Shown: in pieces, positions 1-49,457 of the stretch
Numbering within the stretch: position 1 is the first letter of the stretch
How the letters are laid out: every line of letters starts with the position of its first letter
Assembly (NCBI GenBank): GCA_009924135.1
Contig: RFSE01000005.1
Span: forward strand, 3,061 to 67,060
Source of the DNA: Pseudomonadota bacterium
GTDB lineage: Bacteria > Verrucomicrobiota > Verrucomicrobiia > Limisphaerales > SXTU01
Direction of reading: 5' to 3'
Length of the DNA stretch: 64,000 bases
Program-made: the position numbers and the translations under genes
The notes under the pieces: generated by a model
The model's database searches: none
Told to the model about the DNA's origin: nothing
Seen by the model: the letters and a program-made list of their open reading frames with translations, nothing else

Positions 1-2523
1 GAGGAATTCGACGGGGTAGTTGCCCTTCAGATACGCGGTCTGGTAGGCGACGACCGCATAGGCGGCGGCGTGGGATTTGTTGAAGCCGTAGCCGGCGAAT
101 TTCTCGAGCACATCGAAGATCTGGTTGGCCTTCGATTCCGGGATGCTGTTCCGCTCCTTCGCCCCCTTTACGAAGGACGTACGGTACTTGGCCATCTCCT
201 CGGGCTTCTTTTTGCCCATCGCGCGCCGGAGCAGATCCGCGCTGCCCAGCGAGTAACCCGCCAGGATCTGCGCGGCCTGCATCACCTGCTCCTGGTAGAT
301 GAGCACGCCGTAGGTCTCCTTCGAGATGCTCTCCAGCAGCGGATGTTCGTAAACGATCTCGACCTCCCCGTGGCGGCGCTTGATGAAGTCGGGAATGAGG
401 TCCATCGGGCCGGGGCGATAGAGCGCCACGAGCGCGGTGATGTGCTCGACGGAGCTGATCTGGAACTTCCGGCACAAGTCGCGCATGCCGCCGGATTCCA
501 ACTGGAAGATGCCGACCGTGTTGCCTTTGTTGAGCAGGTCGTAGGCTTTCGTATCGTCGAGCGGGATTTCGTCCACGTTTACGGTGATGCCCTGGGTCTT
601 TTTCACCATCTCGCACACATTGCGAATGACGGTGAGGGTCTTGAGCCCCAGGAAGTCCATCTTCAGCAGGCCGAGGTCGCCGACCGGACCCATCGGGTAT
701 TGCGTGACGATGGTGCCGTCCTCGTCCTGCTTGAGCGGCAGCAGGTTCACCAGCGGCTGGTCACCGATGACCACGCCGGCGGCGTGCACGCTGGAGTTGC
801 GCGCGATGTCTTCGAGCACAAAGGCGGAGTCCAGCAGTTCGCGGGTGACTTCCTCCGACTCGTAGGCGGTTTTGAGTTCCGCCGACTGCTTGAGCGCCTT
901 CTCGAGCGTCATCTTCAGGTCCGCCGGCACCATCTTCGCCAGCCGGTCGCACTCGCCGTAGCTCAGGCCCATGACGCGGCCCACGTCGCGGATGACGGAC
1001 TTCGCACCCATCGTGCCAAAGGTGATGATCTGCGCCACCGAATCGCGCCCATACTTCTGCCGCACATACTCGATGACGTCCGCCCGACGATCGTCGGCGA
1101 AGTCGATGTCAATGTCGGGCGGGTTGACGCGCTCGGGATTCAGGAAGCGCTCGAACAGCAGGTTGTACCGGATCGGGTCAACGTTCGCGATGTCCAGCAG
1201 GTAGGTGACCAGTGAACCGGCCGCGCTACCGCGCGCCACGCACGCCACGCCCATTTCCCGGCCCTTCGCAACGAAGTCGGCGGTGATGAGGAAGTAGCTG
1301 ATGAACCCGGTCTTCTCGATGACGGTGAGTTCGAGTTGCAGGCGGTCGATGATGACCTTGATCGCTGCGGCTACGGCCGGCTGTTCGTGGAGTTTTCCAG
1401 AAGTGTTCAGTAGGCAGTTTTCAGTGTTCAGTGGAGCCCCGTCAGCGGCCGCAGTGCCCTCGCCTGACTGAACACTGGATACTGAATACTGATTACTGTC
1501 CAAAGTGGGCAACTTCCTCGGCTCACGAATTCCCTCAACCACGAACTCCTTCCCGACGGCCTTCACGTCCAGCGTGTAGCGGCGGCCCAGGCCTTCGGCC
1601 AGGAGCTTCCGCAGATAGCCTTCGCGCGTGTAGGTTTCGGGCGGATGGAAAACCGGGTAGTGGAGCGTCTTGAAGTCGAAGTCCACGTTGCACTTCTCGG
1701 CGACCTCGACGGTGTTCGTGACCGCCTCGGGCACCTCGGAGAACAGCGCCTTCATCTCGTCTGCGCTGCGCAGGTAGAACTGCTCCGGCACGTAGCGCAT
1801 CCGCTTCTGGTCCGCGAGCTGTGTCTGGGTGCCGATGCAGATGAGGCAATCGTGCGCCTGCGAATGCCCCTTCTCGACGTAGTGCACGTCATTCGTCGCC
1901 ACCAGCTTGAGGCCGAAATCCTTCGCCCACGGGATCAGGTGGCGGTTCACCTTGGCCTGCTCGGGGATGCCATGGTTCTGGAGTTCGAGGAAGTAGTTCT
2001 CCGCGCCGAAGGTTTGCTTGTACCAGTCCACGGTCTCGCGCGCCTTGTCGAGCTGGTCATGCATGATCAATTGCGGCACCTCGCTGGCCAGACAGCCGGA
2101 CAAGGCGATGAGCCCCTCGTGATGCGCCGCGAGCAGTTCCTTGTCCACGCGGGGCTTGTAATAAAAGCCTTCGAGATGCGCCTTGGTGACCAGCTTCACG
2201 AGGTTCTTGTAACCGGCCTCGTCCTTGGCGAGCAGCAGCAGGTGCTGATAGACCTCCTTGCCGCCTCCGCCGGAGCCGGCCTTCTTCTCCAGGCGGCTGC
2301 CGTGCGCAACGTAAACTTCGCAGCCGATGATCGGCTTGATGCCCTTCTCGCGAACGGTTTTGTAGAAGTCCACGGCCCCGTAGAGCACGCCATGGTCCGT
2401 GATGGCCATCGAGTGGAACTTCAGGTCGTGGGCGCGCTCGGCGAGCTTGTCCAGACGGCACGCGGCATCCAGGAGCGAATACTCCGTGTGCAGGTGCAGA
2501 TGGACAAAGTCAACGTGTGACAT
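1..2523 (-). CDS. dnaE: DNA polymerase III alpha subunit (5' part; runs off the window start)
   Basis: Manual translation from ATG 2523: MSHVDFVHLHLHTEYSLLD (PHP), AITDHG, ARGSAAGSLV, FERFLNPERVNPPDIDIDF, GLLKMDFLGL, KFAGYGFNKSHAAAY. Missing from the ORF track because its stop lies outside the window. Confidence 0.98.
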   Translation of the reverse strand, partial: MSHVDFVHLHLHTEYSLLDAACRLDKLAERAHDLKFHSMAITDHGVLYGAVDFYKTVREKGIKPIIGCEVYVAHGSRLEKKAGSGGGGKEVYQHLLLLAKDEAGYKNLVKLVTKAHLEGFYYKPRVDKELLAAHHEGLIALSGCLASEVPQLIMHDQLDKARETVDWYKQTFGAENYFLELQNHGIPEQAKVNRHLIPWAKDFGLKLVATNDVHYVEKGHSQAHDCLICIGTQTQLADQKRMRYVPEQFYLRSADEMKALFSEVPEAVTNTVEVAEKCNVDFDFKTLHYPVFHPPETYTREGYLRKLLAEGLGRRYTLDVKAVGKEFVVEGIREPRKLPTLDSNQYSVSSVQSGEGTAAADGAPLNTENCLLNTSGKLHEQPAVAAAIKVIIDRLQLELTVIEKTGFISYFLITADFVAKGREMGVACVARGSAAGSLVTYLLDIANVDPIRYNLLFERFLNPERVNPPDIDIDFADDRRADVIEYVRQKYGRDSVAQIITFGTMGAKSVIRDVGRVMGLSYGECDRLAKMVPADLKMTLEKALKQSAELKTAYESEEVTRELLDSAFVLEDIARNSSVHAAGVVIGDQPLVNLLPLKQDEDGTIVTQYPMGPVGDLGLLKMDFLGLKTLTVIRNVCEMVKKTQGITVNVDEIPLDDTKAYDLLNKGNTVGIFQLESGGMRDLCRKFQISSVEHITALVALYRPGPMDLIPDFIKRRHGEVEIVYEHPLLESISKETYGVLIYQEQVMQAAQILAGYSLGSADLLRRAMGKKKPEEMAKYRTSFVKGAKERNSIPESKANQIFDVLEKFAGYGFNKSHAAAYAVVAYQTAYLKGNYPVEFL
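1401..1498. repeat. Heptamer palindromic element (CAGTnnn...nnnACTG) in frame inside dnaE
   Basis: AAGTGTT CAGTAGG CAGTTTT CAGTGTT CAGT - spacer - ACTG AACACTG GATACTG AATACTG ATTACTG. Confidence 0.9.
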
Positions 2524-2627
2524 GGGAGGAAAAGTTTGGGCGGGCGCGGCAAGATGTCGAGTGTGGATTCATCGCGCACGGCTGATAATCAACCGCAGAC
2601 CACCTGGTTGGCGGTCCCCGAATTTTG

Positions 2628-2745
2628 GCCGCGAAGGGGCGCAAAGAACGCAAAGCGAAAACTGGTTCACTCATTGCATCCAACATTGGCCGTAGCAGCC
2701 ACCTCAGCAGTTCCTCCTTTTGCGCCGCTTGTGCCTTTTTGTGGC
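2628..2745. repeat. Intergenic imperfect palindrome with ~9-nt period
   Basis: GCCGCGAAG GGGCGCAAA GAACGCAAAG ... TTTTGCGCC GCTTGTGCC TTTTTGTGGC. Confidence 0.6.
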
Positions 2746-2810
2746 AACAATTCAGCCTTGTGACCGAAGCGCGCTGTTGATTTCCGCGCCCCAGCGGCCA
2801 AGCTCGCCCC

Positions 2811-4373
2811 ATGCTTTTCCTACGCTGTTTGCTCCTCACGCTCGCGCTGGCCACCGCTTCGTCCGCCGCCGTCTCGAACTGGCCCCAGGCCGCCGGTCCG
2901 AACGGCACCTGGTCCGTCGAGGCGGATGACGTGCCGGTCAAGTGGAGCGTCGCCCGCGACGAGGGCGTCGTCTGGCGCACCACGCTGCCGGAGACCGGCC
3001 AAGGCGGTATCGCCGTCTGGGGCGACCGCGTCTTCCTCACCACGCTTAAGCCGGAGGACAGCAAACCGCCGCTGGGCAAGGACATCATCGGCCATTGCCT
3101 CGACGCGAAAACCGGCAAGATCCTCTGGACCGTGAACCTGCCGGGCCGCGAGACCAGCGTGCCGGCCTATTTCTTCAGCGATGCGACCTCGCCTTCGCCC
3201 GTGACGGATGGCCAGTACGTGTGGTTCTTCAATGCCTGCGGGTCCATGGGTTGCTATGACTTCGCCGGCAAGCAGGTCTGGTTCCGCGAGTGGCAGCCGA
3301 CCGGTGGCCGTCCCTTCAACAAGCAGTTCGAACCGATCCTCTTCAACGACGCCCTGCTCAACATGGAGCCGCGCGACACGGATGATCCCAAGCGCGAGGG
3401 CAAGGACCCGTGGAATTACATCCGCGCCCTCGACAAGCGCACCGGCCGTACGCTGTGGGTCGCCGACGATGCGATGACGCACTACAACACGCCCGTCTTC
3501 GGCCGCCTCGCCGATGGTACGCCCGCCGTGCTGCAAGGGCGCGGTGCGTATCATGGCGTGCCCGAGCTGCCCATCGGCCTGAGCCTTACGAGCCTCGCGC
3601 CGGGCAAGGAAGGCAAGACGATCTGGCGCTTTGAGACCAACCGCAGCAAGGCTTGTTACACCATGCATTGGAACACGAAATACGCCGCGTGGTTCGACAT
3701 TGACGCTTCTGAACATCAGGTGCTGGATGCCGCGACCGGCAAGCTCCTCCGCTCGCAATCGCTCGTGAAACAAGTAGATTGGCGGCGCTTTAATCCTGCG
3801 ACCGGCAAGCATGAGCTGCTCGGGGATACGGACCTCTCGAAACAAACGCCGCCGTTGAAAGTCTTCCCCGCGCAGTTCTGCAACATCCTGCTCGGCAACT
3901 GGCACTGGTTCCTCTGTTACACGGAGAACGGCAAACAAAAGCTTGGCCCGCCCTACTCCGTGGGCCGCGTGCATCTCGAAACCGGCAAGGTGGAATACCT
4001 CGAAGTGCCCGTGGCCGTGGCGCGGGCGGCGGGCCAGCCGGACCAGTTCGTCTGGAACAAACCGCAGAAGTCCTCGACAGTCAACTCGCGCGGCATCGAC
4101 GTCGCCTCGGACAAGCGTTCGCAGGGCGATGGGTGGTGGTGGGGCTATCTCGGCAGTCCGACGGCCGCCGGTGGCAAGGTGTATTTCACCACGATGATGG
4201 GCGTCACCTACGTCCTCGACGGTCGCGCCACCGTATTGGATGACAAGGCGCTGCTCGCCGTCAACGACCTCGGCCAGCCCGGCCAGACTTGGAGCCTCAA
4301 CTCGCTCTCCTATGCGGGCGGCCACCTCTTCCATCGGAGCATGAAGGAAGCCGTCTGCCTCGGCCGGAAATGA
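2811..4373 (+). CDS. Secreted PQQ-like (BamB-family) beta-propeller protein
   Basis: Signal peptide, NWPQAAGP start motif, repeated DAKTGKILW/DKRTGRTLW blades. Confidence 0.85.
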   Translation: MLFLRCLLLTLALATASSAAVSNWPQAAGPNGTWSVEADDVPVKWSVARDEGVVWRTTLPETGQGGIAVWGDRVFLTTLKPEDSKPPLGKDIIGHCLDAKTGKILWTVNLPGRETSVPAYFFSDATSPSPVTDGQYVWFFNACGSMGCYDFAGKQVWFREWQPTGGRPFNKQFEPILFNDALLNMEPRDTDDPKREGKDPWNYIRALDKRTGRTLWVADDAMTHYNTPVFGRLADGTPAVLQGRGAYHGVPELPIGLSLTSLAPGKEGKTIWRFETNRSKACYTMHWNTKYAAWFDIDASEHQVLDAATGKLLRSQSLVKQVDWRRFNPATGKHELLGDTDLSKQTPPLKVFPAQFCNILLGNWHWFLCYTENGKQKLGPPYSVGRVHLETGKVEYLEVPVAVARAAGQPDQFVWNKPQKSSTVNSRGIDVASDKRSQGDGWWWGYLGSPTAAGGKVYFTTMMGVTYVLDGRATVLDDKALLAVNDLGQPGQTWSLNSLSYAGGHLFHRSMKEAVCLGRK

Positions 4374-4389
4374 TCACCCCCGTCGCCCC

Positions 4390-4779: not shown

Positions 4780-4803
4780 TTCTCCGGCGCGCCCAGTCGA
4801 GCT

Positions 4804-6103: not shown

Positions 6104-6133
6104 GGGGTCCATTGTAAATCCCCTTCCCTGAAC

Positions 6134-6150: not shown

Positions 6151-6162
6151 TTTCCCTCCATC

Positions 6163-14991: not shown

Positions 14992-15033
14992 AGATGCGAG
15001 TGTCACGGCCCAGCCAGCGAGGGACAAGATTTT

Positions 15034-15112
15034 ATCAGGAAAGCAGGAAGACAGGAAAAGAATCCCGGTCCATTACGAACCCCTTTCATTCCTGCTTTCC
15101 TGCCTTCCTGAT
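15034..15112. repeat. Intergenic octamer palindromic element
   Basis: CAGGAAAG CAGGAAGA CAGGAAAA ... CATTCCTG CTTTCCTG CCTTCCTG. Confidence 0.8.
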
Positions 15113-15126
15113 TACTTTTTCCGATT

Positions 15127-16005
15127 TCATGAACTCGCACTCGTGTACCGCTTGAGCGCCGTGCGCCAGAGGATTTCCGAGGCGAGGAAGATCAGGACCG
15201 CGAGGGTGACCAGCAGGAGGATCTCGAAGGGCGAACCCAGTTTGTCCACGAGGAGTTTCGCGGGAACGTTGGAAACCAGCAGCATCGGCAGCGCGAAGGT
15301 GAAGACGACCTTGAACGTGCCGCGAAACGCTTCGTCAGGCAGACGGGCGATGTTGAAGAGGTTGTAGTAGCCCCAGACGATGCCTTGTGCGCGGACGGTC
15401 CAAAAGCTCGAGGCCGTGAGCATCAGCATGAGCGAGTAATGCAGCGTGATGCCCACGACGACGAGCATCAGGTACCCGATGACCTGGACGAAACCCGGCG
15501 TGTGGCCCAGCCGGTGCAAGGCGTAGCCGACCACCCCCAGCGCACTGAAGGCATTCACAAACCCGCCGAGGTCCACCTGCCGCAGCGAGATGAGGAACCG
15601 CGTGTTGACCGGGAGCAGCAGCATGAAGTCCAGCTTGCCGGTACGGATGTGTTCCGAGAGCGCGGTGAGGTTCGTGAGGAAGAGCGCGGTGAAGAGCTGC
15701 TGGATCAGGTGGCTCGTGCCCACGAGGGCGATCACCTGCCACTTGGTCCAGGTGCCGATGTGATCGGTGTGCAAGTAGAGCACGCCGATGAAGCTGAGTT
15801 GCAGCACGAACCACAGCGCCTCCACGACAATCCACAGCAGGAAATTCGTCTTGAACCCCATCTCGCGGATGACGGAGTTGCGCCAGAGCGCAGCGTAAAG
15901 TGACAGGTAATGGCCGAGGGTCGAGGGCCGAGGGCCGAGGGCCGGGCGGCTTACTCCGTCCGGCTCTCGACCTTCGACTTTCGACTCTCGACTCATAGGC
16001 ATCAT
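15127..16005 (-). CDS. ABC-2 type transporter permease (DUF990-like) with a repeat-derived N-terminus
   Basis: Hydrophobic helices, IRTGKLDFMLLLPVN; ATG 16005 overlaps the upstream TGA. Confidence 0.88.
   Translation of the reverse strand: MMPMSRESKVEGREPDGVSRPALGPRPSTLGHYLSLYAALWRNSVIREMGFKTNFLLWIVVEALWFVLQLSFIGVLYLHTDHIGTWTKWQVIALVGTSHLIQQLFTALFLTNLTALSEHIRTGKLDFMLLLPVNTRFLISLRQVDLGGFVNAFSALGVVGYALHRLGHTPGFVQVIGYLMLVVVGITLHYSLMLMLTASSFWTVRAQGIVWGYYNLFNIARLPDEAFRGTFKVVFTFALPMLLVSNVPAKLLVDKLGSPFEILLLVTLAVLIFLASEILWRTALKRYTSASS
15913..15992. repeat. Heptamer palindromic element (GYCGAGG...CYYTCGA) in the permease 5' end
   Basis: GCCGAGG GTCGAGG GCCGAGG GCCGAGG ... CTCTCGA CCTTCGA CTTTCGA CTCTCGA. 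Confidence 0.9.
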
Positions 16006-16805
16006 CCTCCCACCGCCGAGTATTTCCGGATTCCCCGGTTCCAGACACAGCGGGCCAGGCCGTAGGCGGCCACGATCCAGAGCAGTTGCACCAGCACGCC
16101 CAGCCAGAGCGCCTCGCCGGTCACGCGGCCCAGCCAGACGCTCACCGGAAAGAACAGCATGTAGGGAAAGGGCGTGTAGTCCAGCACCCCGGCCACGGCC
16201 GGCGGGAGCAGGTCCAACGGGAAGAGGTGGCCGCCGGCGATGTATTCGAAGGCGAAGGCAATGAAGATGAAGGTCGCCACCTCCAGCACCCAGAAGGCCA
16301 GCAGCGCCAGCGTGAAGCTGAACAGGAATTGCAGCACCGCCGTGAGCGCCACGGAGACGAGGAACCCGGCGGCCGTCGCGGCATCCGGCGGCAGGATGAA
16401 GCTGTCCCGCAGGCACCAGATGAAGAGGACCGTGGGCACGAGCGCCACCGCCGCATACACCAGCCGGCCCGCGCCGAAGAGGCAGAACCGGTACGCGAGA
16501 TAATCCATCGGTTTGAGCAGGAACTGGCTGATGTTCCCGTCCTTGATGTCGGCGGCGATCTGCCAGTCGTCCTCCGTCACCGCCGTCAGGGCGTCCACGA
16601 TCGTGATCACGAGGTAGTAGGAAACCATCTGGGTCAGCTCATAATTGGCGATCTGGCCGCCGGACTTCCCCAGGTAAATCGTCCGCCAGACCGAGATGAC
16701 CGCCATGAGCGGCACCAGGCCGAAGGAGGCGCGGAAGAGGAAATTGACCCGGTACACCAGCGTGTTTTGCAGGCCGATGTTCAGGACGTGCCAGTATTTA
16801 CCCAT
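16002..16805 (-). CDS. ABC-2 type transporter permease
   Basis: IKDGNISQFLLKP, GHLFPLDLLP, multiple TM helices. Confidence 0.9.
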   Translation of the reverse strand: MGKYWHVLNIGLQNTLVYRVNFLFRASFGLVPLMAVISVWRTIYLGKSGGQIANYELTQMVSYYLVITIVDALTAVTEDDWQIAADIKDGNISQFLLKPMDYLAYRFCLFGAGRLVYAAVALVPTVLFIWCLRDSFILPPDAATAAGFLVSVALTAVLQFLFSFTLALLAFWVLEVATFIFIAFAFEYIAGGHLFPLDLLPPAVAGVLDYTPFPYMLFFPVSVWLGRVTGEALWLGVLVQLLWIVAAYGLARCVWNRGIRKYSAVGG

Positions 16806-20499: not shown

Positions 20500-20945
20500 C
20501 CCCCGTATTGCCGCTGCGCAGCCAGCCGTGCAGGAAGAACTGCGCGTCCGCCAGCACCGCCAGCAAAGAATGACGACGGTGGCGCCCCTTGCGCCGGGGA
20601 TTGAACCCCTTGCGTCCCCCCTCCTGCTGGCCTGCCCGGCTGAACACCGTCGAGTCGAGTTCCAGGCGCGAATCCCGTTGGGGGACACTTGAGCAGGCCC
20701 AGCAGCCAGCGCCAGAGCGACCGCCAGAACGACTGGATGTGGGCCTGCGAGAAGCGCCGGGCGCCAACCACGACGGACAGGAAGGCCCTGAGCGTATGGG
20801 CCAAGGGGATGGCGTTGTTGGACGCCGCTGGGGCAAAGGCAGATTGCGTGGCACCTCCTGGGCAAAGCCGATCTGGCCCAGAAAGGCGAAGAAGGTGGCC
20901 AGCCCGCCGAAGGGCGAGATGGCCTTGGGTTGGGCGCGCGAACGG
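20500..20945 (-). pseudogene. IS1380-family transposase remnant
   Basis: Pieces in different frames: ISPFGGL..FF.FL.QIG; AFLSVVVGARRF; LDSTVFSR.GQQEG..KGFNPRRKGR..HSLLAVLA...FLHGWLRSGNT. Confidence 0.8.
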
Positions 20946-23883: not shown

Positions 23884-24812
23884 GCTTTCAACTTCAATCG
23901 CTCGCTCGCCGCCAGCCAGTCGGATGGAATGCCCTCGCGTCCGACGAAGCAGGCAACTATGCCACCAACGATCGCGCAGTTCGTGTCACAATCCCCCTCG
24001 CCTAGGAGAGTCGAAACCATGGCATCAGTGTAATTGTCCAAGTGGCGTGCAGCACACCAAAGAGTGAACGGTACAGTATCAGGAGCGGTAACTTGAAATC
24101 CGCTTCCGAGTATTTTGGCGGCGATTTGTGGTGTCGCCTCCAACGGCAACTTCGCCGCCCGTAAAACTCCGCGTTTTGTGTCACCCTCGGGGGTCAACTC
24201 GCAAGCGACTTCCTGAAGCCGCCGCGCTACCAGCTTCGCGTCCTGCCCGCGGTTCTCCGTTGCAACCGAGGCAGCCACTGCTACCGCCACCGCTCCAGCT
24301 ATGCCGTCCGGGTGGGAGTGGGTCACTTCTGCGGAAAGCTTCGCTTCGCGAACCACCTGTTGATGGTCACCTGCAAAATAAGCTCCCAATGGTGCGACCC
24401 GCATGGCACCCCCGTTTCCCATGGAACCTGAGCCGCTAAATGCGTTGCGGGAAGCCGTCTTCCAGTCCTCGCCATAGTGAATTGCCTGCAAGATCATTCG
24501 CGCCATTTTTCCGTAGCCACGGTCCGGCTCATCCATAAACCGGCTGGTGAAACGACTAGCCAATGAGTCCTGATTAATCCCCCCATGCCACGCAAGAACT
24601 TCATAGATGGCCATTGCCATTTCAGTGTCATCCGTGTGCCACCACGGACCTCCGGGTAATCCATCCGAATCGATTCGTTCACGCGCACTGGCAGGACGGC
24701 TAAAATGCATCTCACCAAATCCATCGCCTACCGCCAGTCCTTCAAGCGAAACATAAGCACGCTCCAATCGTCGCTTGGTGTCAAACGGGTCAGTTGATGA
24801 ACAGGAACTCAT
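23880..24812 (-). CDS. ADP-ribosylglycohydrolase family protein (start uncertain)
   Basis: GLAVGDGFG, HTDDT, RGYG, GSMGNGGAMR, GDCDT; more AT-rich than its neighbours. Confidence 0.9.
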   Translation of the reverse strand: MSSCSSTDPFDTKRRLERAYVSLEGLAVGDGFGEMHFSRPASARERIDSDGLPGGPWWHTDDTEMAMAIYEVLAWHGGINQDSLASRFTSRFMDEPDRGYGKMARMILQAIHYGEDWKTASRNAFSGSGSMGNGGAMRVAPLGAYFAGDHQQVVREAKLSAEVTHSHPDGIAGAVAVAVAASVATENRGQDAKLVARRLQEVACELTPEGDTKRGVLRAAKLPLEATPQIAAKILGSGFQVTAPDTVPFTLWCAARHLDNYTDAMVSTLLGEGDCDTNCAIVGGIVACFVGREGIPSDWLAASERLKLKA

Positions 24813-27800
24813 TGCTGTTGAACAAAACCCGGCCCAGGGCTGCCAGCCCGTGCTGGTCCGCGTAGGCCGACATCGCGCGCACCTCCTCCTCCGTTGCCGC
24901 CCGTTGGTAGGCCAGCCGCACCGCCGCACTCACCCGAGAGGGAGTGTCACTTCCCAGCTTCTCGACACGCGCCGCGAAATGCTCGCTGTGCCGCAATACG
25001 AAGTCGTTGTTGAAGAGCGTAAGTGCCTGTAGCGCCGAGGCCGAGAATGACCGCGTGGGTTGCAACAATGCCGCATCCGGAAAATCCAGCGCCTCCATGA
25101 ACGGGTCCGCAATGCCCCGCCATACGACGCGGTAGATGCTCCGCCGGCCCGCGCCGGGACTGTCCCAGTCAAACGGAGTGTAATCCACCTTCGGGGTGTC
25201 CTGGGGACCTTTGCTGGTCTTGAAATGCTGCGTCCCCGGTCCGCCCATCGTCAGATCGAGCCGCCCGGAGACCGCGAGCACCGCGTCACGGAAGGACTCG
25301 GCGTCCAGCCGGGAACGGTTCATGCGCCAGAGGAGGTGATTTTCCGGGTCGAGGGTCGAGGGTCGAGGGCCGAGCGCCTTCGACCCTCGACTCTCGACAC
25401 TCGACTGCCGATAGGCCGCGCTGATTACGATCAGCCGGTGCAGATGTTTCAACGAACCGCCGCTGTCGCGCAGCTCGCACGCGAGCCAGTCGAGGAGTTC
25501 GGGATGAGAGGGCACGCCGCCCATGCGGCCGAAGTCGCTGGGCGTGTCGCACAGGCCGCGGCCGAAATGGAAATGCCACACCCGGTTCGCCGCGCTGCGC
25601 CAGGTGAGCGGGTTGCGCGGATCCGCCAGCCAGTCCGCCAGGGCCACGCGGCGCAGCGCTTCGCGCTTAGGGTCGGCCAGGGCGAACCGCGCGGGCAGGT
25701 CCGCGAGCGCTGAGAGCGCACCGGGTTCCGCGAGCCGGCCTGGCTTGGTGATGTCCCCGCGCTTGAGCACGTGCACCGGCTTGGGCTCCAATCCGGATTT
25801 CACTGCAAAGACCTGGACCTGGGACGGAAGCTTGTTGAGCTCGTCACGCGCCTGCTGACGCAGCGCAAAGGCAGCAAGGGCCAGCTGTTGCTCGGGGGTG
25901 CGCTGCGCTCGACCGCGCCGCAAAGCCGTCGCCACCAGGGCGGGCACGGGTTCGATGTCCGGACGTTCCGAATCCGTTGCGGAAAGCCGGAAGCGTCCGA
26001 TCAGATGGCCGCCGCCATGCAGTTGCTTGAGGGTTATGACCAGCTTGGAATCCGAGGTGAGCGCAAGGGGCGACTCCAGTTCAAACACCGCCAGATGGTC
26101 CTCCCCCACCCGCGGATAGATGCCCCAGGCCGTGGTTTCGTTGCCATCAATGGCCCGCTCAATCCCCCAGTCCGCCTGGTTAAAATCCGCCGTTGCGCGT
26201 TTGAACTTCAACTCCCTGCCTTGCGGAGCTTCGGGCGTGAACACCTGGGCTTGAAATTCGGACAGATGCAGGTTGCCGTTGTCCTGCCGGCCCGGGCCCT
26301 TTTTCGGCAGGGTGGGATCAGCGAGAACTTCCAATCGCAGGGCGGTGATGCGTGGCAATGCGCTCTGAACGGTGAGCGCGTAAACTTCCTTTTCGGGACG
26401 CGGACCGGTTGACGAATAGGAATCATCCAGATTCTGTTTGAGCACCGCCCCGTGAGCGGCGCGCGCCGATACCGATACCAGCGGCTGCCAAAGGGTGTCC
26501 TGGTGGCCATGAGCCACCGCCCACTGTTCCACGAAGGCCTGATGCTCCTGGCTGAGCAGGACTGCGGCGTCATTGCGCAGGGCGGCTTCGTTAAGGTCCT
26601 GCCACGTTTTCCGTTGCCTGGCCACCTCCGGCGAGGCATCGAAGGGCAAATCGGCCTTGGTAATGCCGGCGAAGACCGCTTGCAGGGCGTAGTAATCCTC
26701 CTGGGAGATGGGATCAAACTTGTGCGCGTGGCAGCGGGCGCAGTTCGCGGTGGTGCTGGCAAAGGCCGTCATCGTCTGCGTCACGAGGTCGTCACGGTCG
26801 ATGTAGTCGAACGTGCGCGGAGCGGTGCTTTGCGTGCTTTTGTCGAGCGGCCCGGCCCCCAGGAAACCCAGCCCCGCAGTCAGTTGCGACTCCAGCGGAT
26901 AGAAAACGTCGGCGGCGAGCTGTTCGCGGATGAAGCGTTGCCAGGGCACGTCACGGTTGAAGGCAGTGATGACGTAGTCGCGATAACGCCAGGCATTCGT
27001 GCGGAGGAGGTCATGCTCGAAACCGTGCGTGTCCGCGAAGTGGATCGTATCAAACCAGTGCCGTGCCCAGCGTTCACCGTAGTGCGGGGAGGCGAGCAGG
27101 CGATCGACGGTGGCAGCGAAGGCTTTCTCTCTGCGTCCCTCCGCCTCCTCGTCCCGTCGTCCCGACGAGGGGAAGTCGCGGACGAATGCCTCAACTTCTT
27201 CCGGCGACGGCGGCAGGCCGAGGAGATCGAAGTGCAGGCGGCGGATGAGCGTGCGCGCGTCGGCCTCGGGTGCTGGCTGGAGGTTTTTCTCCCGGAGCTT
27301 GGTGGCGATGAAACGGTCAATGGGGTTGGGGGAAGCATTCAGTGACCAGTGTTCAGTTTTCAGTTTCGCCGGTCCTGCCGACCGCACGGCCTTGTCCGAC
27401 CGAACACTGAACCCTGAAGACTGATTACTTGGAACAGCCGGTCGCACGAGCGGCTTCAAGGACCACCAGTCAGTGCTGACGCGGGCCACCACTTCCTTCG
27501 GCGGCGGCACCTGTTTCACCCACTCGACGAGCACTGCGACTTCCGCGTCCGTCAGCTTCGCCTTTCCCTTGGGCGGCATCTGCAAATCCGCGCTCGTCTG
27601 CCGGACCGCCTTGATCAGCAGGCTGTGCTCCGGGTCGCCCTGCACGACCGCCGGACCTGAATCTCCACCGGTGAGGATCGCACCGGCCGAATCGAGGACC
27701 AGGCCGTTCTTGGACTTCTTTGCCGCGTGGCTGTGGCACTCGTGACAGTGCTTTGCCAGCACGGGCAGCACTTGTTCCTTGAACAGCATATCCGCCTCCG

Positions 27801-27879
27801 CCGCGCCAAGCTGCGCCACGAGCACGCCCCACGCGGCCAGCAGAAGGCCGGTTCGAGCGAGGCTGGGCGGCAAGGTCAT
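24790..27879 (-). CDS. Planctomycete cytochrome c / DUF1549 / DUF1553 protein
   Basis: Start MTLPPSLAR; CHECH, YGERWARHW, CARCHAHKFDPI, PSHPELLDWLA, NSNEFLF. Confidence 0.93.
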   Translation of the reverse strand: MTLPPSLARTGLLLAAWGVLVAQLGAAEADMLFKEQVLPVLAKHCHECHSHAAKKSKNGLVLDSAGAILTGGDSGPAVVQGDPEHSLLIKAVRQTSADLQMPPKGKAKLTDAEVAVLVEWVKQVPPPKEVVARVSTDWWSLKPLVRPAVPSNQSSGFSVRSDKAVRSAGPAKLKTEHWSLNASPNPIDRFIATKLREKNLQPAPEADARTLIRRLHFDLLGLPPSPEEVEAFVRDFPSSGRRDEEAEGRREKAFAATVDRLLASPHYGERWARHWFDTIHFADTHGFEHDLLRTNAWRYRDYVITAFNRDVPWQRFIREQLAADVFYPLESQLTAGLGFLGAGPLDKSTQSTAPRTFDYIDRDDLVTQTMTAFASTTANCARCHAHKFDPISQEDYYALQAVFAGITKADLPFDASPEVARQRKTWQDLNEAALRNDAAVLLSQEHQAFVEQWAVAHGHQDTLWQPLVSVSARAAHGAVLKQNLDDSYSSTGPRPEKEVYALTVQSALPRITALRLEVLADPTLPKKGPGRQDNGNLHLSEFQAQVFTPEAPQGRELKFKRATADFNQADWGIERAIDGNETTAWGIYPRVGEDHLAVFELESPLALTSDSKLVITLKQLHGGGHLIGRFRLSATDSERPDIEPVPALVATALRRGRAQRTPEQQLALAAFALRQQARDELNKLPSQVQVFAVKSGLEPKPVHVLKRGDITKPGRLAEPGALSALADLPARFALADPKREALRRVALADWLADPRNPLTWRSAANRVWHFHFGRGLCDTPSDFGRMGGVPSHPELLDWLACELRDSGGSLKHLHRLIVISAAYRQSSVESRGSKALGPRPSTLDPENHLLWRMNRSRLDAESFRDAVLAVSGRLDLTMGGPGTQHFKTSKGPQDTPKVDYTPFDWDSPGAGRRSIYRVVWRGIADPFMEALDFPDAALLQPTRSFSASALQALTLFNNDFVLRHSEHFAARVEKLGSDTPSRVSAAVRLAYQRAATEEEVRAMSAYADQHGLAALGRVLFNSNEFLFIN
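25348..25405. repeat. Heptamer palindromic element (GTCGAGG...CnnTCGA) in frame in the DUF1553 domain
   Basis: GTCGAGG x3 GCCGAGC G CCTTCGA CCCTCGA CTCTCGA CACTCGA. Confidence 0.9.
27340..27430. repeat. Heptamer palindromic element (CAGTnnn...nnnACTG) in frame in the DUF1549 gene
   Basis: CAGTGAC CAGTGTT CAGTTTT CAGTTT ... AACACTG AACCCTG AAGACTG ATTACTT. Confidence 0.88.
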
Positions 27880-27947
27880 GAACGTTCGCACAGAGTCAAC
27901 CGGACCTGACGCCGGAGCGCAAAGGCAATTCACCATAGAACAAGCCG

Positions 27948-27975
27948 TTGACAATAAGCCACCATCCGGTAGGGT
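27948..27975 (+). promoter_or_regulatory. Sigma70-like promoter of rpsT
   Basis: TTGACA-N16-TAGGGT, 25 nt before the ATG. Confidence 0.65.
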
Positions 27976-28000
27976 GCGCGCCTCTTTACGAGTAAATAAT

Positions 28001-28285
28001 ATGCCGAACACTAAGTCCGCCGCCCGTCGCATGCGCAACAGCGCGCGCAAGCACGTCCGTAACACCGTCGTCCGCACCCAGCTCAAGACGGTCGAGAAGA
28101 AATTCCGCGCCGCCGTCGCCACCAAGGCCGACAGCTCCCCCACCGCGCTGCGCGCTGCCATCTCCACGCTCGACAAGGCCGTGAACAAGGGCGTCATCAA
28201 GCGCAACACCGCCGACCGCAAGAAGTCCCGCCTCACGATCGCCCTCAACAAGGCGACGGCGGCTGCGGCCCCGGCGGCCAAGTAA
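28001..28285 (+). CDS. rpsT: 30S ribosomal protein S20
   Basis: MPNTKSAARRMR...LDKAVNKGVIKRNTADRKKSRL. Confidence 0.97.
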   Translation: MPNTKSAARRMRNSARKHVRNTVVRTQLKTVEKKFRAAVATKADSSPTALRAAISTLDKAVNKGVIKRNTADRKKSRLTIALNKATAAAAPAAK

Positions 28286-38854: not shown

Positions 38855-40936
38855 TCAGGCGGCCGGGGCCAGTTCGGGAGCTGAGCCGTCCGGCAACCGC
38901 TTTTTCGGCGGCAACACCAGCCACGCTTCGAGGAAGAGAAAGGCCAGCATGCCGATGAGAAACAGCCGCCAGATTTCGCCCTGCAGTGCGTCGCTGCGGG
39001 CGGTGCGTTCTTGAAGCAATTGCAACGGGAGCGTGCCGAGGAGTTTCTTCGCGCCGGCGGGTTCGAGCAGCGTGCGGTCGTCCTCGGCGCCGGGACGGTT
39101 TACGGCGAGCAGGCGTTCGCCACTGCGATAAACGCCCGCGTGCAGGGCGATGTCCTTGCCCGTGGAGCCATCGGCGGAGGTCCATTGCTTTGCGCGGTCG
39201 AGGGCGCTGAGTTCACCGCAGGCGACCATGGTCTCTTGATTAAGCCGCCGTGCGCCCGTTTGGAGCAGGCGTTGCAACATCGGCACGAGCACGGGGCCAT
39301 CGCCAAGGCTGGACCACTCCTCATGCGGAAGGGTCGCGCAGAAGAAGAACTGGCCCTTGCCCAGCGCCCGGCGGGTGAGCAGTGGCGAGCCATCGGCGAA
39401 TGACGCCAGCGCGGTGCCGCTGGAGGCAATCAAAGCCGGGGAAGTCTTTGCCGCCTCGCCGGCTTCGGCACTTTCGCCTTTTGCCATTTGCCTTTTGCCT
39501 TCGTCCCCGTCGGTGATGGGTTGGCGGCGGGAGATTTCGAGTTCGACGAGTGGTAGGCTCAGACCTTCGTCGGTCTTCGCGAGCGGGCCTTCCTGCTGTC
39601 CCCATTTGGCGACCTTGAAAGGTTTGTCGGCGGACGCGGGCTGCGCCTCGGCCCAGCCGAAACCGAGGAACTTGCCCGTATCCGTGCGGCCGGGCGGGAG
39701 GAAGAGCACGGCCCCGCCTTCTTCGATGAAGCCGCGCAGGCGCTTCTCACCGGCGGCATCCGGCAACGGGGCTTGCCAGATGAGCAGGGCGGCGTCGGAA
39801 CCAGTACGCTCGGCCCACGCGACGGGCGCGAGCACCTCGGCCGGCTGGCGCGTGGCCGGGGAAAGCGCGGCGAGCTGGGCATTGCGGATGAGGGCGGGCT
39901 GGTCGCTCACGACGGCGGCGCGGAGGATGGAGTCGGAGCCAAAGACGAAATAAGCGGCGTTGTCGCGGGCATTGGCGTCGGCCGGGAGTGCAAGTGTGCC
40001 CCAACCAAGCCCTTTTGCCGCGCCAAGGTCCACCTTGTGCCGCCAACGAAGCGCCGCCCCGTCCATGTCGAGTTCAGTCTGCGATTTTACACCGTTGAGC
40101 GTGAGGGAAAGCGGGAAGTGCGCCGGGGCACTGCCGGGCTGCACGTTGCGCGCGAGATCAAGCGCGAGGTTCAGCTCCGCACCATCGGGCCGGGCACGGC
40201 GGAAGACCTCGGCCAGCGTGGCGGAGGTGTTGGGCTCGCGGTCATCATCAAAGGCGAGCAGGCGGACGCGGATGCCTTGTGGGAGTTTGCCGAGTTGATT
40301 GGTGACGGTCTTCCAACGCTCGTCGTCGGGCAGCCAGTTGCTGCGTTGGAGGTCGGAGGCGACCCAGAGTTCGGCGGCTCCGGCACGGTTTTCGACCAGC
40401 CAGTTGTGGGCGATTTGCAGCAGGGTGGGCAGGTCGGCGGCGGTGTCGGTGGGACCGGTGAGCGTAGGTTCAAGCAGGGATTTCGCGCTGGCGAGCTGCT
40501 GGGGGATGCGCGTGGCGGAATCCAGCAGGACGAGATGGGATTTGTCCTGGAATTCACGCGCGGCCTCGGCGAGGAGTTTTACCGCCTGCTCGCGCTTGGT
40601 GATGGTCTGCCCGGCGAGGCGCGACTCCATGCTGGCCGAGCGGTCGAGCACGATGATGATGACATCCGGTGCGGGCGAAAGCGTCCAACCAAGCCACCCG
40701 CCGGCAAGCGGGCGCGCGATGAAGAGGATGAGTGCGAGGACGGCAAGCGTGCGGAAGAGCAGGACCAGCCACTGACGGAGCTTGGCATGGCTGGTGGAGG
40801 CGCGCGTGGCCTGAAGCAGGAACATCATCGCCGCCCACGGCTGCGGTTTGTGGCGCAGGCGGTTGATGAGGTGAATGATGACCGGGACTAGGACGAGCGG
40901 CAGTGCCCAGAGTAAATATGGCTGGAGGAAGGTCAT
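38855..40936 (-). CDS. BatA-domain / vWA-like membrane protein
   Basis: MTFLQP..L...PVIIHL, WAAMMFL, ARP, LDRSASM, SDLQ, C-terminal TM. Confidence 0.9.
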   Translation of the reverse strand: MTFLQPYLLWALPLVLVPVIIHLINRLRHKPQPWAAMMFLLQATRASTSHAKLRQWLVLLFRTLAVLALILFIARPLAGGWLGWTLSPAPDVIIIVLDRSASMESRLAGQTITKREQAVKLLAEAAREFQDKSHLVLLDSATRIPQQLASAKSLLEPTLTGPTDTAADLPTLLQIAHNWLVENRAGAAELWVASDLQRSNWLPDDERWKTVTNQLGKLPQGIRVRLLAFDDDREPNTSATLAEVFRRARPDGAELNLALDLARNVQPGSAPAHFPLSLTLNGVKSQTELDMDGAALRWRHKVDLGAAKGLGWGTLALPADANARDNAAYFVFGSDSILRAAVVSDQPALIRNAQLAALSPATRQPAEVLAPVAWAERTGSDAALLIWQAPLPDAAGEKRLRGFIEEGGAVLFLPPGRTDTGKFLGFGWAEAQPASADKPFKVAKWGQQEGPLAKTDEGLSLPLVELEISRRQPITDGDEGKRQMAKGESAEAGEAAKTSPALIASSGTALASFADGSPLLTRRALGKGQFFFCATLPHEEWSSLGDGPVLVPMLQRLLQTGARRLNQETMVACGELSALDRAKQWTSADGSTGKDIALHAGVYRSGERLLAVNRPGAEDDRTLLEPAGAKKLLGTLPLQLLQERTARSDALQGEIWRLFLIGMLAFLFLEAWLVLPPKKRLPDGSAPELAPAA
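39472..39506. repeat. Heptamer tract (TTTTGCC type) in frame in the BatA gene
   Basis: TTTCGCC TTTTGCC ATTTGCC TTTTGCC TTCGTCC, read as DEGKRQMAKGE. Confidence 0.75.
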
Positions 40937-41106
40937 CGGAATGCGGAATGCGGAATGCGGAATGTGGAATAGTCGCGCCCGGCCTTCTTCTGTCGCTCGG
41001 GTTGGTCACCTGACACCCTGTTATAGCCCTTGTTCAAGGCGTGCGCCGGATCTGCCGGATTCAGCACGGCCAGATAGTAGAACGTGTCGGCGAAGAGGAG
41101 TTTCAT
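40933..41106 (-). pseudogene. Truncated PIN (VapC-like) toxin fused to an unrelated tail
   Basis: MKLLFADTFYYLAVLNPADPAH (PIN N-terminus), then an unrelated sequence ending STFRIPHSAFR*; ATGA overlaps at both ends. Confidence 0.7.
40937..40970. repeat. Heptamer tract (CGGAATG)x4 abutting the BatA start codon
   Basis: CGGAATG x4 + TGGAAT. Confidence 0.9.
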
Positions 41107-45166: not shown

Positions 45167-45242
45167 CCTGATCTGATCCCGGTGACAGTGGCAGAACGCC
45201 GCTGTCACACTGCCTTTAAATCAAAACCGACTTGAGTCTCCG

Positions 45243-45872: not shown

Positions 45873-45947
45873 GCTTGGTTGGTGGCGGCAGGCTCCCGGT
45901 GTTCCTCCGGTGGATTGGGTTGACGGTCCCGTTCCCTTCGCGCCAAC

Positions 45948-46925: not shown

Positions 46926-47012
46926 GATCAGGAACAGGATGAAGCTTGAGACTAGGGTTTCCGCTTAATCTTCCTCGTAATCTTCCACCCCATACTCTTC
47001 ACTCCTCCGCCG

Positions 47013-48332
47013 ATGTCCTTCGTCCAGCGCCTTAAAATCGAAGCCGAAGATACCCTTCGCTACCACGACACCGTTCGCGGCGTGCTCTGCGAGGTGGAAC
47101 TGCTGAAGGACAAGTCGCCCGCTGCAACTGATCCGCAGGCCATCGCCCGCAGCATCGTGCGGTTGTGCTCGGCCGCACGCCTCGCGGCCAGCAGGGAGCA
47201 ATTGCTCAAGGTCGAGGCGCTCATCGCCGAACGGGTGCAGTTGCTCGGCAACCGGCCCGTGGACTTCGCCGAGTTCGAGGCGTCCTCGATGAAGAAGCGG
47301 AACATCGACTACTTCGTCCCCCTCAAGCCCTACGTCAGCGAGCGGGAGAAGGGTGTGTGCTACATCGCCTTCGAGCATCGGTGGGCGCGCTTCGTCCACC
47401 ATTACCGCGACAAACTGGAGGCCTTCGCAAAGCGCTACCTGCTCATCGTCCACCCGGTCTGGGCCACACCCCACGGCCTGATCAACTACTACCTCCCCAG
47501 CATCTGGCCGGGGAACGATCCGGTCTTCGCGTGTGTCAGTGATCCTCATGATCTGGACACCTTGCCCCGCCAGTCGCCCCGTCATGTCGTCATCCCGCGT
47601 TACTGCTCCCACTGGGTGAACCCGGCGGTCTATCCGCAGGTGCCCTTTGAGAAAAAGGACATCGACATCGTGATGCTGGCGAACTTCGGGAAATACAAAC
47701 GCCATTTCGCCCTGTTCAAGGCGTTGCGCGACATGCCCCGCAGCGTGAAGGTCGTGTGCATCGGCCAGCACAATGACAAGCGCACCCGCGAAGTCCTCCT
47801 CGCCGAGGCTGCCGCCTATGGCGTGGCCGACCGGTTCGAGCTGAAGGAGAATGCGCCGGACGATGTGGTGTTCGACTGCATGGCCCGCGCCAAGGTGAAC
47901 CTCATCATGTCCAAGCGCGAAGGCTCCTGCATTGCCATCGTCGAGGCCATGTTCGCCAACACGCCTTCGGGCATGATCAAGGACGCCGAGGTTGGCTCAC
48001 GCGTCTTCATCAACGAGCACACCGGCCGTTTTCTCACCGATGACAACCTGGGCGCGCAGCTCATGGACTTCATCGCCAACGCCGGAAAGTATTCGCCCCG
48101 GAAGTGGATGCTGGATAACCACCATGACTGCCACGGCAGCAGCAAGGTGACGAACGAGGTCATCAAGCAGGAGATGCTCAAGCGCGGGCAGGACTGGACC
48201 ACCGACCTCTGCCCCTTGCACTGGCGGCCGAACCCCAAGATCCTTCGCCCCGAAGACCTGGCCATGATGCAGGCGACCTACGCCGATATCCGAAACAACG
48301 TCGGCATCGAGATGGACCTGCCGAAGTCATGA
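47013..48332 (+). CDS. Glycosyltransferase (GT4-like)
   Basis: KYKRH, SKREGSCIAIVEAMFANTP (EX7E motif). Confidence 0.75.
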   Translation: MSFVQRLKIEAEDTLRYHDTVRGVLCEVELLKDKSPAATDPQAIARSIVRLCSAARLAASREQLLKVEALIAERVQLLGNRPVDFAEFEASSMKKRNIDYFVPLKPYVSEREKGVCYIAFEHRWARFVHHYRDKLEAFAKRYLLIVHPVWATPHGLINYYLPSIWPGNDPVFACVSDPHDLDTLPRQSPRHVVIPRYCSHWVNPAVYPQVPFEKKDIDIVMLANFGKYKRHFALFKALRDMPRSVKVVCIGQHNDKRTREVLLAEAAAYGVADRFELKENAPDDVVFDCMARAKVNLIMSKREGSCIAIVEAMFANTPSGMIKDAEVGSRVFINEHTGRFLTDDNLGAQLMDFIANAGKYSPRKWMLDNHHDCHGSSKVTNEVIKQEMLKRGQDWTTDLCPLHWRPNPKILRPEDLAMMQATYADIRNNVGIEMDLPKS

Positions 48333-48419
48333 AGCCTCCGATCAGTGGCGACTGGCCAGACGCACTTTCTGCGTGTGCATCCGCGCCCGTTCGTGGTTTC
48401 CTCTCCCTGCTTTATCGCC

Positions 48420-49352
48420 ATGTCTGACTTGCTAAAAGACGCCGCCAAGCGCGGCTTGAAGAAGGCCGCCCGCTGGGCCAGCACCGGCAAGAACCTCCCG
48501 CGCCTCAAAGGCATGCAGGCCTGGTGGCAGCGCCACGTGGGTGACCAAAACGAGATCAATGCACTGCGCGAGCAGTATGCCGACCTCATCCACGCCCCGG
48601 ACAAGCGCAAGCTCCTCGCCATCCACGAGCGCAAGGCCCACTCCCAGTTCGGCGAGGATGGGTTGCTGATCCACTTTTTTTCAAAGATCGGCGCGCCGAA
48701 CAAGACGTTCATCGAGTTCGGTATCGAGGATGGCACGGAGTGCAATGCCGCGAACCTTGCCCTGCACTTCGGCTGGGGCGGTCTGCTCATGGATGGCAGT
48801 GATTCCCTCGCCGACCGTGCGCGCACGTTCTACCACCGCCGACACGGCATCGCGCCCCAGCACGTCCAGGTCCGCACGAACTTCATCACGAAGGAAAACG
48901 TCAACGATCTCTTCGCCCAGTACGGCTTCAAGGGCGAACTGGACATGCTGTCCATCGACATCGACGGCGTGGACTACTGGATCTGGGACGCCGTCAAGGT
49001 CGTCTCGCCGCGCCTGCTCATCATCGAGTTCAACGCCAGCTTCGGTCCCACGCGCAGCGTGACCGTGCCTTACGAGCCTTCCTTCGAACGTTACGCGCAT
49101 CACGAGAGCGGCTGGTATCACGGCGCGTCACTCACCGCCTTCACCAAGCTCGCCGCGAAGAAGGGCTACTTCCTCGCTGGCTGTGACACCGCCGGCGCGA
49201 ACGCCTTCTTCATCCGGCGCGACATCGGCCAGGGCAAGGTCGCCGAGTTCACGCCCGAAGAAGCGTTCTACCCTTGTGCCCCCCGGCTGCGCGAAGCCTC
49301 GCTCGACGAACAATGGGCCCGGGTGAAGCATCTGCCGTTGATCGAAATTTAA
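48420..49352 (+). CDS. FkbM-like / Methyltransf_21-like protein
   Basis: SQFGEDG, FIEFG, LSIDIDGVDYWIW, IEFN, GASL. Confidence 0.8.
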   Translation: MSDLLKDAAKRGLKKAARWASTGKNLPRLKGMQAWWQRHVGDQNEINALREQYADLIHAPDKRKLLAIHERKAHSQFGEDGLLIHFFSKIGAPNKTFIEFGIEDGTECNAANLALHFGWGGLLMDGSDSLADRARTFYHRRHGIAPQHVQVRTNFITKENVNDLFAQYGFKGELDMLSIDIDGVDYWIWDAVKVVSPRLLIIEFNASFGPTRSVTVPYEPSFERYAHHESGWYHGASLTAFTKLAAKKGYFLAGCDTAGANAFFIRRDIGQGKVAEFTPEEAFYPCAPRLREASLDEQWARVKHLPLIEI

Positions 49353-49357
49353 CTATG

Positions 49358-49457
49358 AGTCCAAGGTCCAAAGTCCAAAGTCCAAAGTCAGCGCAATGGC
49401 CTGACGGGCTCGCGGAACGACTTTGGACTCTTGGACCTTGGACCTTGGACTTCTGAC
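49358..49457. repeat. Heptamer palindromic element (RGTCCAA...TTGGACY) filling the intergenic gap
   Basis: AGTCCAA GGTCCAA AGTCCAA AGTCCAA ... TTGGACT C TTGGACC TTGGACC TTGGACT. Confidence 0.92.

Follow-up and report, generated by a model that had tools for sequence, protein, structure and literature searches.

Hairpin repeats built of tandem heptamers in a verrucomicrobial genome, with in-frame copies in conserved genes

Selfish palindromes that reside in frame within protein-coding genes are a textbook feature of Rickettsia, whose palindromic elements (RPEs) form families with conserved full-length sequences, not tandem heptamers; we know of no transposase for RPEs. Heptamer repeats have been noted for decades in cyanobacteria, Beggiatoaceae, and Xanthomonas and, to our knowledge, no account of their origin has been given. 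Foldback (FB) elements of Drosophila carry terminal inverted repeats that consist of short tandem subrepeats, vary in length, and enclose a heterogeneous or absent middle; they are kilobase-scale eukaryotic elements with target duplications and Mutator- or P-like transposases. Here, we analyze hairpin repeats in a stretch of 64,000 nucleotides (positions 3,061 to 67,060 of contig RFSE01000005.1, assembly GCA_009924135.1; hereafter, the window and G000, respectively). In a full element, a run of 3-5 tandem heptamers is followed by a loop and then by the reverse complement of the run. The host is a freshwater, Pedosphaerales-like verrucomicrobium with a genome-wide population of such hairpins. 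This genome unites in-frame palindromes and heptamer repeats, with hundreds of heptamer-stem hairpins in dozens of families. In-frame palindromic repeats as such are already known; the heptamer-stem architecture, the recurrent landing sites, and the spreading route call for explanation.

RPEs are short palindromes found in intergenic regions as well as in frame in conserved genes, where they add a peptide without destroying the protein. The intragenic repeats of R. conorii are discussed in PMC3733652. The repeats analyzed here share this trait, being present in frame in the conserved genes for DnaE, a protein with PSCyt and PSD1 domains (three sites), and a BatA-family protein. They differ from RPEs, as judged by the description of the latter, in the unrelated phylum and sequences, the mostly intergenic location, the largely unique loops, and the stems made of tandem words. 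Repetitive extragenic palindromes (REPs), bacterial interspersed mosaic elements (BIMEs), and REPINs are similar to the present repeats in being high-copy extragenic hairpins, located mostly at co-directional or convergent junctions, with no target duplication. Some are found in frame, and REPs have been listed in genes many of which are involved in replication or repair, among them dnaE of R. conorii, as well as in numerous genes of the verrucomicrobium Opitutus terrae (PMC3733652). REPs of the GTAG type even share the DnaE linker site in other Pedosphaerales. However, stems in the present genome are 25-35 bp of tandem words, compared to 5-13 bp in REPs, and the GTAG/CGTC end tag was not found at the displayed ends of the AGTGTTC, GGTCGAG, AGTCCAA, AATGGCG, and AAGGCAA families.

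Heptamer simple sequence repeats (SSRs), such as short tandemly repeated repetitive (STRR) sequences and the TAACTGA and GGGAATC repeats, resemble the arms in their tandem 7-nt words, some with CAGT or ACTGA cores, in the mainly intergenic location, and in the frequent placement a few nucleotides upstream of starts. In the respective reports, TAACTGA repeats are located upstream of starts and in open reading frames (ORFs), giving LSVISYQ-like peptides when translated (PMC4679880), and 70-75 cases of the Xanthomonas GGGAATC repeats are convergent inverted pairs, the same geometry as here (PMC4692102). The sections consulted deal with one or a few words per genome, mainly in solo direct arrays, and do not mention a multi-family hairpin architecture, in-frame residence in essential genes, empty sites, or site recurrence. 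Foldback elements share the inverted repeats of tandem subrepeats around a variable middle but differ from the present ~70-130-nt elements, which lack target duplications and have no transposase seen between the arms. [quoted passage not shown] With regard to the conserved internal sequence of MITEs, loops are conserved in AAGGCAA, 9-mer, and some 8-mer copies, not in the AGTGTTC and GGTCGAG families, and no autonomous partner was recognized between the far-spaced arms examined. In the literature searched, from which subscription journals were largely absent, we found no heptamer-stem hairpins in Verrucomicrobia and no bacterial foldback elements.

Anatomy, abundance, and placement of the hairpin repeats

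In each arm, ~25-35 nt long, a 7-nt word (in some families, 6-10 nt) is repeated 3-6 times in tandem, and the element as a whole spans about 70-130 nt. The host assembly is a 6.68-Mb draft of 490 contigs (62.8% G+C, 90% complete), and the named relatives of its DnaE come from Verrucomicrobiota labelled Pedosphaera, Limisphaerales, or subdivision 3. In 2 Mb of this genome, we detected 225 period-7 arrays of at least three copies, compared to 8 in an order-3 Markov simulation (~28-fold enrichment). Genome-wide, Tandem Repeats Finder (TRF) identified 804 period-7 arrays, of which 317 are paired, within 160 nt, with an inverted array and 20 with a direct one, at equal score. Altogether, 337 inverted tandem hairpins were defined (210 with period 7, 55 with period 8, 36 with period 9, 23 with period 6, and 13 with period 10). 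They sort into ~64 word families, the largest of which are AGTGTTC (52 copies), CAGGAAGG (34), GGTCGAG (28), and AGTCCAA (24), in agreement with the claim of the first-pass annotation of the window that several word families share one geometry. The arms are poorer in G+C than the loops (means of 49% vs 63%), and 912 of the 1533 arrays have no partner (solo arrays). Because the detector missed two hairpins in the window (15913-15992 and 27338-27430), the genome-wide counts are lower bounds. A strict GGTCGAG hairpin pattern was found in none of 250 other genomes drawn from the phylum and in 3 of 150 genomes of the order, with neither of the two congeners in the latter draw among them; this pattern requires three perfect units per arm, so that the distribution is undercounted. 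Several host contigs start inside a hairpin repeat (e.g., C91:6-37, C141:1-28, C191:1-21, C313:9-36, and C336:9-32), which suggests that these repeats break short-read assemblies, a practical consequence of their abundance.

The window contains the following copies:

1395..1505, minus strand: AGTGTTC-family hairpin in the DnaE linker, in frame; arms 1402-1433 and 1467-1498
2628..2745, no strand assigned: imperfect hairpin of the 9-mer type (CGCAAAGNN) in the intergenic spacer upstream of the dnaE start (2523)
15030..15118, no strand assigned: hairpin of the 8-mer CAGGAAAG family, intergenic, between the stop of an ABC-2 permease gene and the fmt start; arms 15036-15059 and 15089-15110
15905..16002, minus strand: GGTCGAG-family hairpin directly after the ATG (16002) of the second ABC-2 permease gene; arms 15912-15944 and 15964-15994
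25340..25410, minus strand: GGTCGAG-family hairpin in the PSD1 (DUF1553) domain (site 2), in frame between YRQSS and DPEN; arms 25346-25374 and 25380-25405
27134..27165, minus strand: decayed 8-mer hairpin (TCGTCCCG/CCCTCCGT type) in the PSCyt/PSD1 protein (site 3), in frame
27335..27435, minus strand: AGTGTTC-family hairpin between the PSCyt1 and PSCyt2 domains (site 1), in frame; arms 27338-27364 and 27402-27424
39417..39509, minus strand: AAGGCAA-family element in the gene for a BatA-family protein, an 87-nt in-frame insertion with one arm decayed and the other at 39471-39501
40937..40970, minus strand: solo array of five CGGAATG units directly upstream of the BatA-family start codon (40936)
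49353..49459, plus strand: AGTCCAA-family hairpin that fills the spacer from the stop of 48345..49352 to the ATG at 49460; arms 49358-49389 and 49419-49450

Sequence inspection and TRF bore out the coordinates and core words of the tracts listed in the first-pass annotation. Its count of at least six copies inside ORFs holds for five clear cases (DnaE, the three PSCyt/PSD1 sites, and the BatA-family protein) and one probable case, the permease; the tracts at 49358-49457, 15034-15112, and 2628-2745 are intergenic. Of two tracts described there as half-elements, that at 40937-40970 is indeed a solo array but lies outside the coding sequence (CDS), upstream of the BatA-family start, and that at 39472-39506 is the good arm of the 87-nt insertion. 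The DnaE copy has 31-nt arms and a 34-nt loop and adds ~32 residues between the PHP domain (residues 8-184) and the DNA_pol3_alpha domain (from residue 389). The ATG of the second permease gene overlaps the upstream stop (TGATG), and the hairpin that follows is probably translated as an N-terminal extension of the permease, a coding status that hinges on this ATG. The hairpin at 49353..49459 itself constitutes a 33-codon mini-ORF (49355..49456), and the arms of the 9-mer-type hairpin match 13 other places in the genome. As had been proposed, copies of the same family yield matching peptides in unrelated proteins: SNQ.S..SV.S ... L.TE...LN.S is common to DnaE and PSCyt, and ALGPRPSTL is common to the permease and PSD1. 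Judging from the alignments, it is plausible that the inserts create new peptide loops; an AlphaFold2 model of the PSD1 region (18-row alignment, mean pLDDT of 46.7) was too poor to bear on whether the insert is a surface loop. In the 1163-aa ORF that carries the three PSCyt/PSD1 sites (24790-28281, minus strand), alignments with relatives begin only at about residue 91-150, and the cytochrome domain is preceded by a stretch that resembles a signal peptide; the true start is probably well downstream of the first TTG.

Genome-wide, the colonization of coding sequences described in the first-pass annotation is the exception. Under a strict test that requires one open frame which is also the best-scoring coding frame on both flanks, 43 of 327 elements (13%) are located within CDSs, compared to 1202 of 3000 random segments (40%), an approximately three-fold depletion; this test placed the DnaE copy under "other." Among solo period-7 arrays, 74 of 401 passed. 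The share differs between families, from 15 of 28 in GGTCGAG and 12 of 52 in AGTGTTC to 0 of 34 in the 8-mer family. Most copies occupy tiny spacers between co-directional genes.

The in-frame copies carry modifications of the stop codons that the arms would otherwise introduce. AGTGTTC arms contain one TGA per unit, and in the frames that are read, this TGA is changed to TGC (DnaE, second arm) or TGG (PSCyt); one AGTGTTC subfamily with the TGA-to-TGG fix is shared by DnaE and at least three PSCyt-family genes. Among 150 non-CDS copies between co-directional genes, start and stop codons tightly bracket the element on the sense strand in 28 cases and on the antisense strand in 7 (26 sense-only vs 5 antisense-only, p = 2e-4). 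Examples include the mini-ORF at 49355..49456 and an element of an unrelated word at the same junction in the relative G012. Junction hairpins are often exact mini-ORFs, with the start a few nucleotides past the upstream stop and the stop a few nucleotides before the downstream start, and may be annotated as small hypothetical proteins. More generally, translation of hairpin repeats may account for many of the small "hypothetical proteins" and odd low-complexity inserts that are annotated in Verrucomicrobia.

At co-directional junctions, it is the antisense strand that gives the better fold (129 vs 45 copies), and the same holds for intergenic copies that are surely untranslated (42 vs 13). 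Among sense-strand mismatches (5' arm.3' arm), A.C leads (176, followed by 82 G.T, 57 C.A, and 45 T.G), weakening the hairpin. The comparison of the better-folding strand with local GC skew (72 vs 91, p = 0.16) gave no link to the replication strand; the asymmetry follows gene direction rather than local GC skew. These counts suggest that strong hairpins within operons would be tolerated when traversed by ribosomes and that selection would weaken the hairpin in the mRNA.

The same sites in related genomes

Comparison with relatives shows that the same few sites are recurrently occupied by different families, by solo arrays, and even by unrelated GTAG-type REPs, which is a better description than the "interchangeable core words" proposed initially. 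The DnaE linker was compared in 29 relatives. AGTGTTC-type hairpins are present there in five, a diverged AGTAATT version in four and, decayed, in a fifth, and GGTCGAG-type hairpins in a single congener plus a single genome from another family; three relatives have GC-rich hairpins there, four a long composite insert, and one a half array. The remaining linkers are short and plain, with a minimum of 6 residues, and in other phyla, the linker is 6-18 nt long. In the wider set of named Pedosphaerales, this site is occupied by REP-type hairpins with the GTAG tag, by other hairpins of heptamers, and by a CCCCAGA array. The GTAG-tagged hairpins (GTAGGACAGGC... with its complement) are in frame in loci L097, L098, L100, L109, L148, and L013. 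A second, GC-rich hairpin repeat (GGGGTGAGGGG / CCCTCTCCC type) occupies the site in L010, L021, L026, L124, and L138; if translated, it would yield P/G/E-rich peptides, and the AAGGCAA elements of the host genome have it as their outer shell.

The PSCyt protein, compared among 18 homologues, has three hairpin sites. Site 1 contains either a solo array, of ATCGGCA x4 or GCGGTCA x4, or a hairpin of the AGTGTTC or 8-mer kind; site 2 contains at least six different word families; and site 3 is empty (60 nt) in three distant homologues, with a solo ATCGGCA array in seven loci and 8-mer hairpins in five.

Alignment of orthologs, which the first-pass annotation had put forward as a check, revealed exact empty alleles for two copies in the window. 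The 87-nt BatA insert is absent from all four congeners compared, with 9 nt replaced at the site, and at the site of the upstream array, G012 has two CCGATTG units. The site at 49353-49459, ~104 nt in the window, is empty (stop, 3 nt, and ATG) in three of five congeners (G010, G004, and G008), and in G012 and G015, it is occupied by CTCCAAG- and CCAATG-type hairpins. The permease-fmt junction (15030..15118) carries a homologous 8-mer hairpin in G010 and other hairpins in G008 and G015; in two congeners, the left array at the permease junction consists of one word and the right array of another.

Possible origins of the copies

Across the genome, 251 of 256 copies keep the single chirality of their family (25 of the 28 families with at least three copies), and the 5' arm is richer in G than in C in 260 elements vs 57 (41 families vs 16). 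The ORF-compatible AGTGTTC subfamily, comprising the copies in DnaE and in three PSCyt-family genes, has 31-nt arms that are 97-100% alike and loops that are all 34 nt long, with shared ends and interiors only ~38-53% alike (counts by eye). Counted likewise by eye, the left arm of the DnaE copy and that of a PSCyt paralogue from G007 agree at every position (31 of 31), and the right arms share the TGA-to-TGG fix. Given that identity among the PSCyt-family host proteins is only about 35-40% and that the host genes have diverged far more than the arms, the shared arms and stop fix support copying between genes. Whole-element copies would have conserved loops and flanks, as seen in the families AAGGCAA and two of 9-mers and in part of the 8-mer copies, and the empty sites in congeners (BatA and 49353-49459) support gain of whole elements. 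Direct repeats flanking 329 elements did not exceed the permuted control, and a clean target duplication is absent at both sites with known empty alleles, which fits a REP/IS200-like route better than a DDE transposase.

With about as much confidence as doubt, we interpret the elements as REP/RPE-like foldback hairpin repeats that are copied by a hairpin-dependent, duplication-free route and then evolve locally. Most likely, the hairpins would be copied between loci, now or recently, as pre-formed DNA, and, as with REPs/REPINs and Rickettsia palindromic elements, the route would depend on the hairpin and leave no target duplication. Copies would persist where a strong hairpin is least harmful, namely, within the tiny spacers that separate adjacent genes and within protein linkers that are flexible, and would survive in transcribed DNA mainly where ribosomes read through them, either in frame with the TGAs fixed or with a start and stop of their own. 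After landing, loops would diverge fast and arms slowly, with words drifting in concert; one arm could decay, and new hairpins would land in or replace old ones. Such local evolution and re-landing would result in the same site carrying different families in different species.

Several observations weigh against this interpretation. Simple copy-and-paste would not produce the unrelated loop interiors seen between copies in the AGTGTTC and GGTCGAG families, and moving whole hairpins does not explain solo arrays or two-word chimeric elements; the BatA insertion took the place of 9 nt instead of just splitting the site. No near-identical donor was found for eight elements of the window, the best whole-element matches being 73-85% identical. 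Stop-free reading did not differ significantly between the sense and antisense strands (145 vs 136 of 191 elements, p = 0.24), so that the read-through filter which we infer draws on the depletion in CDSs, the stop fixes, and the mini-ORF count. No mobilizing gene was found, with PF01797 the only transposase family searched. Eight of the 140 array pairs that are 200-5000 nt apart, examined because the enclosed genes had been proposed as candidate mobilizers, enclose ordinary genes, including those for a CPCC-type cysteine-rich protein, a pentapeptide-repeat protein, an esterase, and a DUF58-like protein; by eye, rather than by a Pfam scan, no nuclease or transposase was recognized among them. 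Furthermore, the draft is 90% complete and some contigs end in hairpin repeats, so that copies and genes may be missing. Of the earlier proposal that non-autonomous elements spread, the presence or absence of copies between congeners, with exact empty sites, and the sharing of one AGTGTTC subfamily and its stop fix by different genes are borne out, and mobility itself is what we infer, with neither target duplication, donor, nor mobilizer detected.

A REP-associated tyrosine transposase (RAYT) was considered as the mobilizer and rejected. The single PF01797 match in the genome, on contig C138, is flanked by its own GC-rich REPs and not by heptamer arrays, which sets the present elements apart from a REPtron and also counts against the favored interpretation. 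This REPtron (G000:C138:4113-7352, L079) encodes a 243-aa Y1/RAYT-like transposase (L079 1411..2142, minus strand; PF01797, 35 bits) and carries ~33-nt GC-rich palindromic repeats (CGGAGCGCGGCTGTG type) on both sides along with 133-251-nt direct repeats. The CGGAGCGCGGCTGTG-type family is unrelated to the heptamer hairpins.

The hairpins could also have originated locally, without mobility, as structured microsatellites that are produced and turned over on the spot, through replication slippage and through synthesis by fold-back or template switching where a site is fragile or permissive, in which case the families would represent mutational attractors and concerted word drift. This scenario, which we consider unlikely but worth keeping in view, accounts for the presence of a solo array or a hairpin at the same site in different species, the series of intermediate words at PSCyt site 1 (GCGGTCA -> GTGGTCA -> GTGTTCA), the unique loop interiors in the two largest families, and the lack of detected target duplications, donors, and mobilizer. 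It is also in line with the over-representation of heptamer arrays, with no known vehicle, in several unrelated phyla, as reported in PMC4692102 and PMC4679880. It fails, however, on the empty sites, which hold no seed but merely a stop, 3 nt, and a start, on the recurrence, across genes and species, of 31-nt arms whose variant units follow an identical order and which share the stop fix, and on chirality, given that fold-back growth should give both orientations; the conserved loops and flanks of some families are likewise at odds with it. Under a different scheme, the hairpins would be written, not moved: at a double-strand break, often at the tip of a pre-existing hairpin, both 3' ends would be extended from a template with a family-specific G-rich repeat and then joined with filler, yielding the array, a unique loop, and the reverse-complement array in one step, in a manner resembling telomere healing by a bacterial repeat writer. 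Such two-ended arm addition best accounts for the odd features, that is, near-identical arms with unrelated loop interiors, two-word chimeras, half-elements, nesting, and site re-use, and it would also account for the single chirality with the G-rich arm 5' on both strands, the lack of target duplication, and the 9-nt replacement at the BatA site. Nesting is represented by AAGGCAA arms inside a GC-rich hairpin and by a ~2.8-kb non-coding island (G000:C19:3230-6084; L080 731-3585) with three concentric word arrays: one side has TCGAGGG, AGGTTGA, and GCTGACG, and the other has their complements, mirrored in order; in the middle of this island are gene fragments, one of which resembles, by eye, the C-terminus of a DUF2075-type ATPase. 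Nevertheless, arm addition appears improbable: it has no bacterial precedent and no candidate enzyme, the search for PF00078 yielded no reverse transcriptase in the genome, which is 90% complete, and the families with conserved loops, together with the constant 34-nt loop with shared ends, indicate copying of whole elements. The G-rich rule across families, for its part, could be inherited if the families descend from one another.

About equally improbable, in our estimation, is that the elements are cis-acting sequences selected by the host, with the copies in CDSs as by-products. They could function as signals for translation initiation or coupling, as RNase III or terminator hairpins, or as sites for a heptamer-reading protein. 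Consistent with such roles, they lie a few nucleotides from stops and starts, with one solo array abutting a start codon; the orthologous DnaE arms of G000, G008, and G012 differ at only 1-4 of 31 positions and the loops at far more (by eye); and the strand asymmetry tracks gene direction and not GC skew. A role of this kind was proposed by MacGregor in 2015 for the TAACTGA repeats upstream of starts (PMC4679880). However, presence at the 49353-49459 junction is erratic among congeners, dozens of unrelated words would call for as many readers, it is the sense-strand hairpin that is weakened, the opposite of what selection for mRNA structure predicts, and the origin of the copies is left unexplained. 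That the tracts are an artifact of assembly or binning of a metagenome-assembled genome, an outcome that the first-pass annotation had named as a refutation, can be effectively discounted, notwithstanding the 490-contig draft and the contigs that end inside such repeats: contigs of run X5, from a different study, bridge three of the window copies gap-free (spanning 15782-16535, 25064-25680, and 26772-28118), orthologous elements are present in many independently assembled relatives, and the reading frames of conserved proteins run through the elements.

The tracts are not only real but also variable. In a ~94%-identical strain (runs X3 and X4), the element at 15913-16001 is replaced by 83 other letters. 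Contigs of the RNA run X19 cover parts of the PSCyt gene and bridge no element. Strain comparison within one genus makes the origin of heptamer repeats testable. A further difference in the related strain concerns window positions 20620-20894, where X3 and X4 contigs skip 273 nt and contain 4 other letters instead, a deletion or replacement polymorphism.

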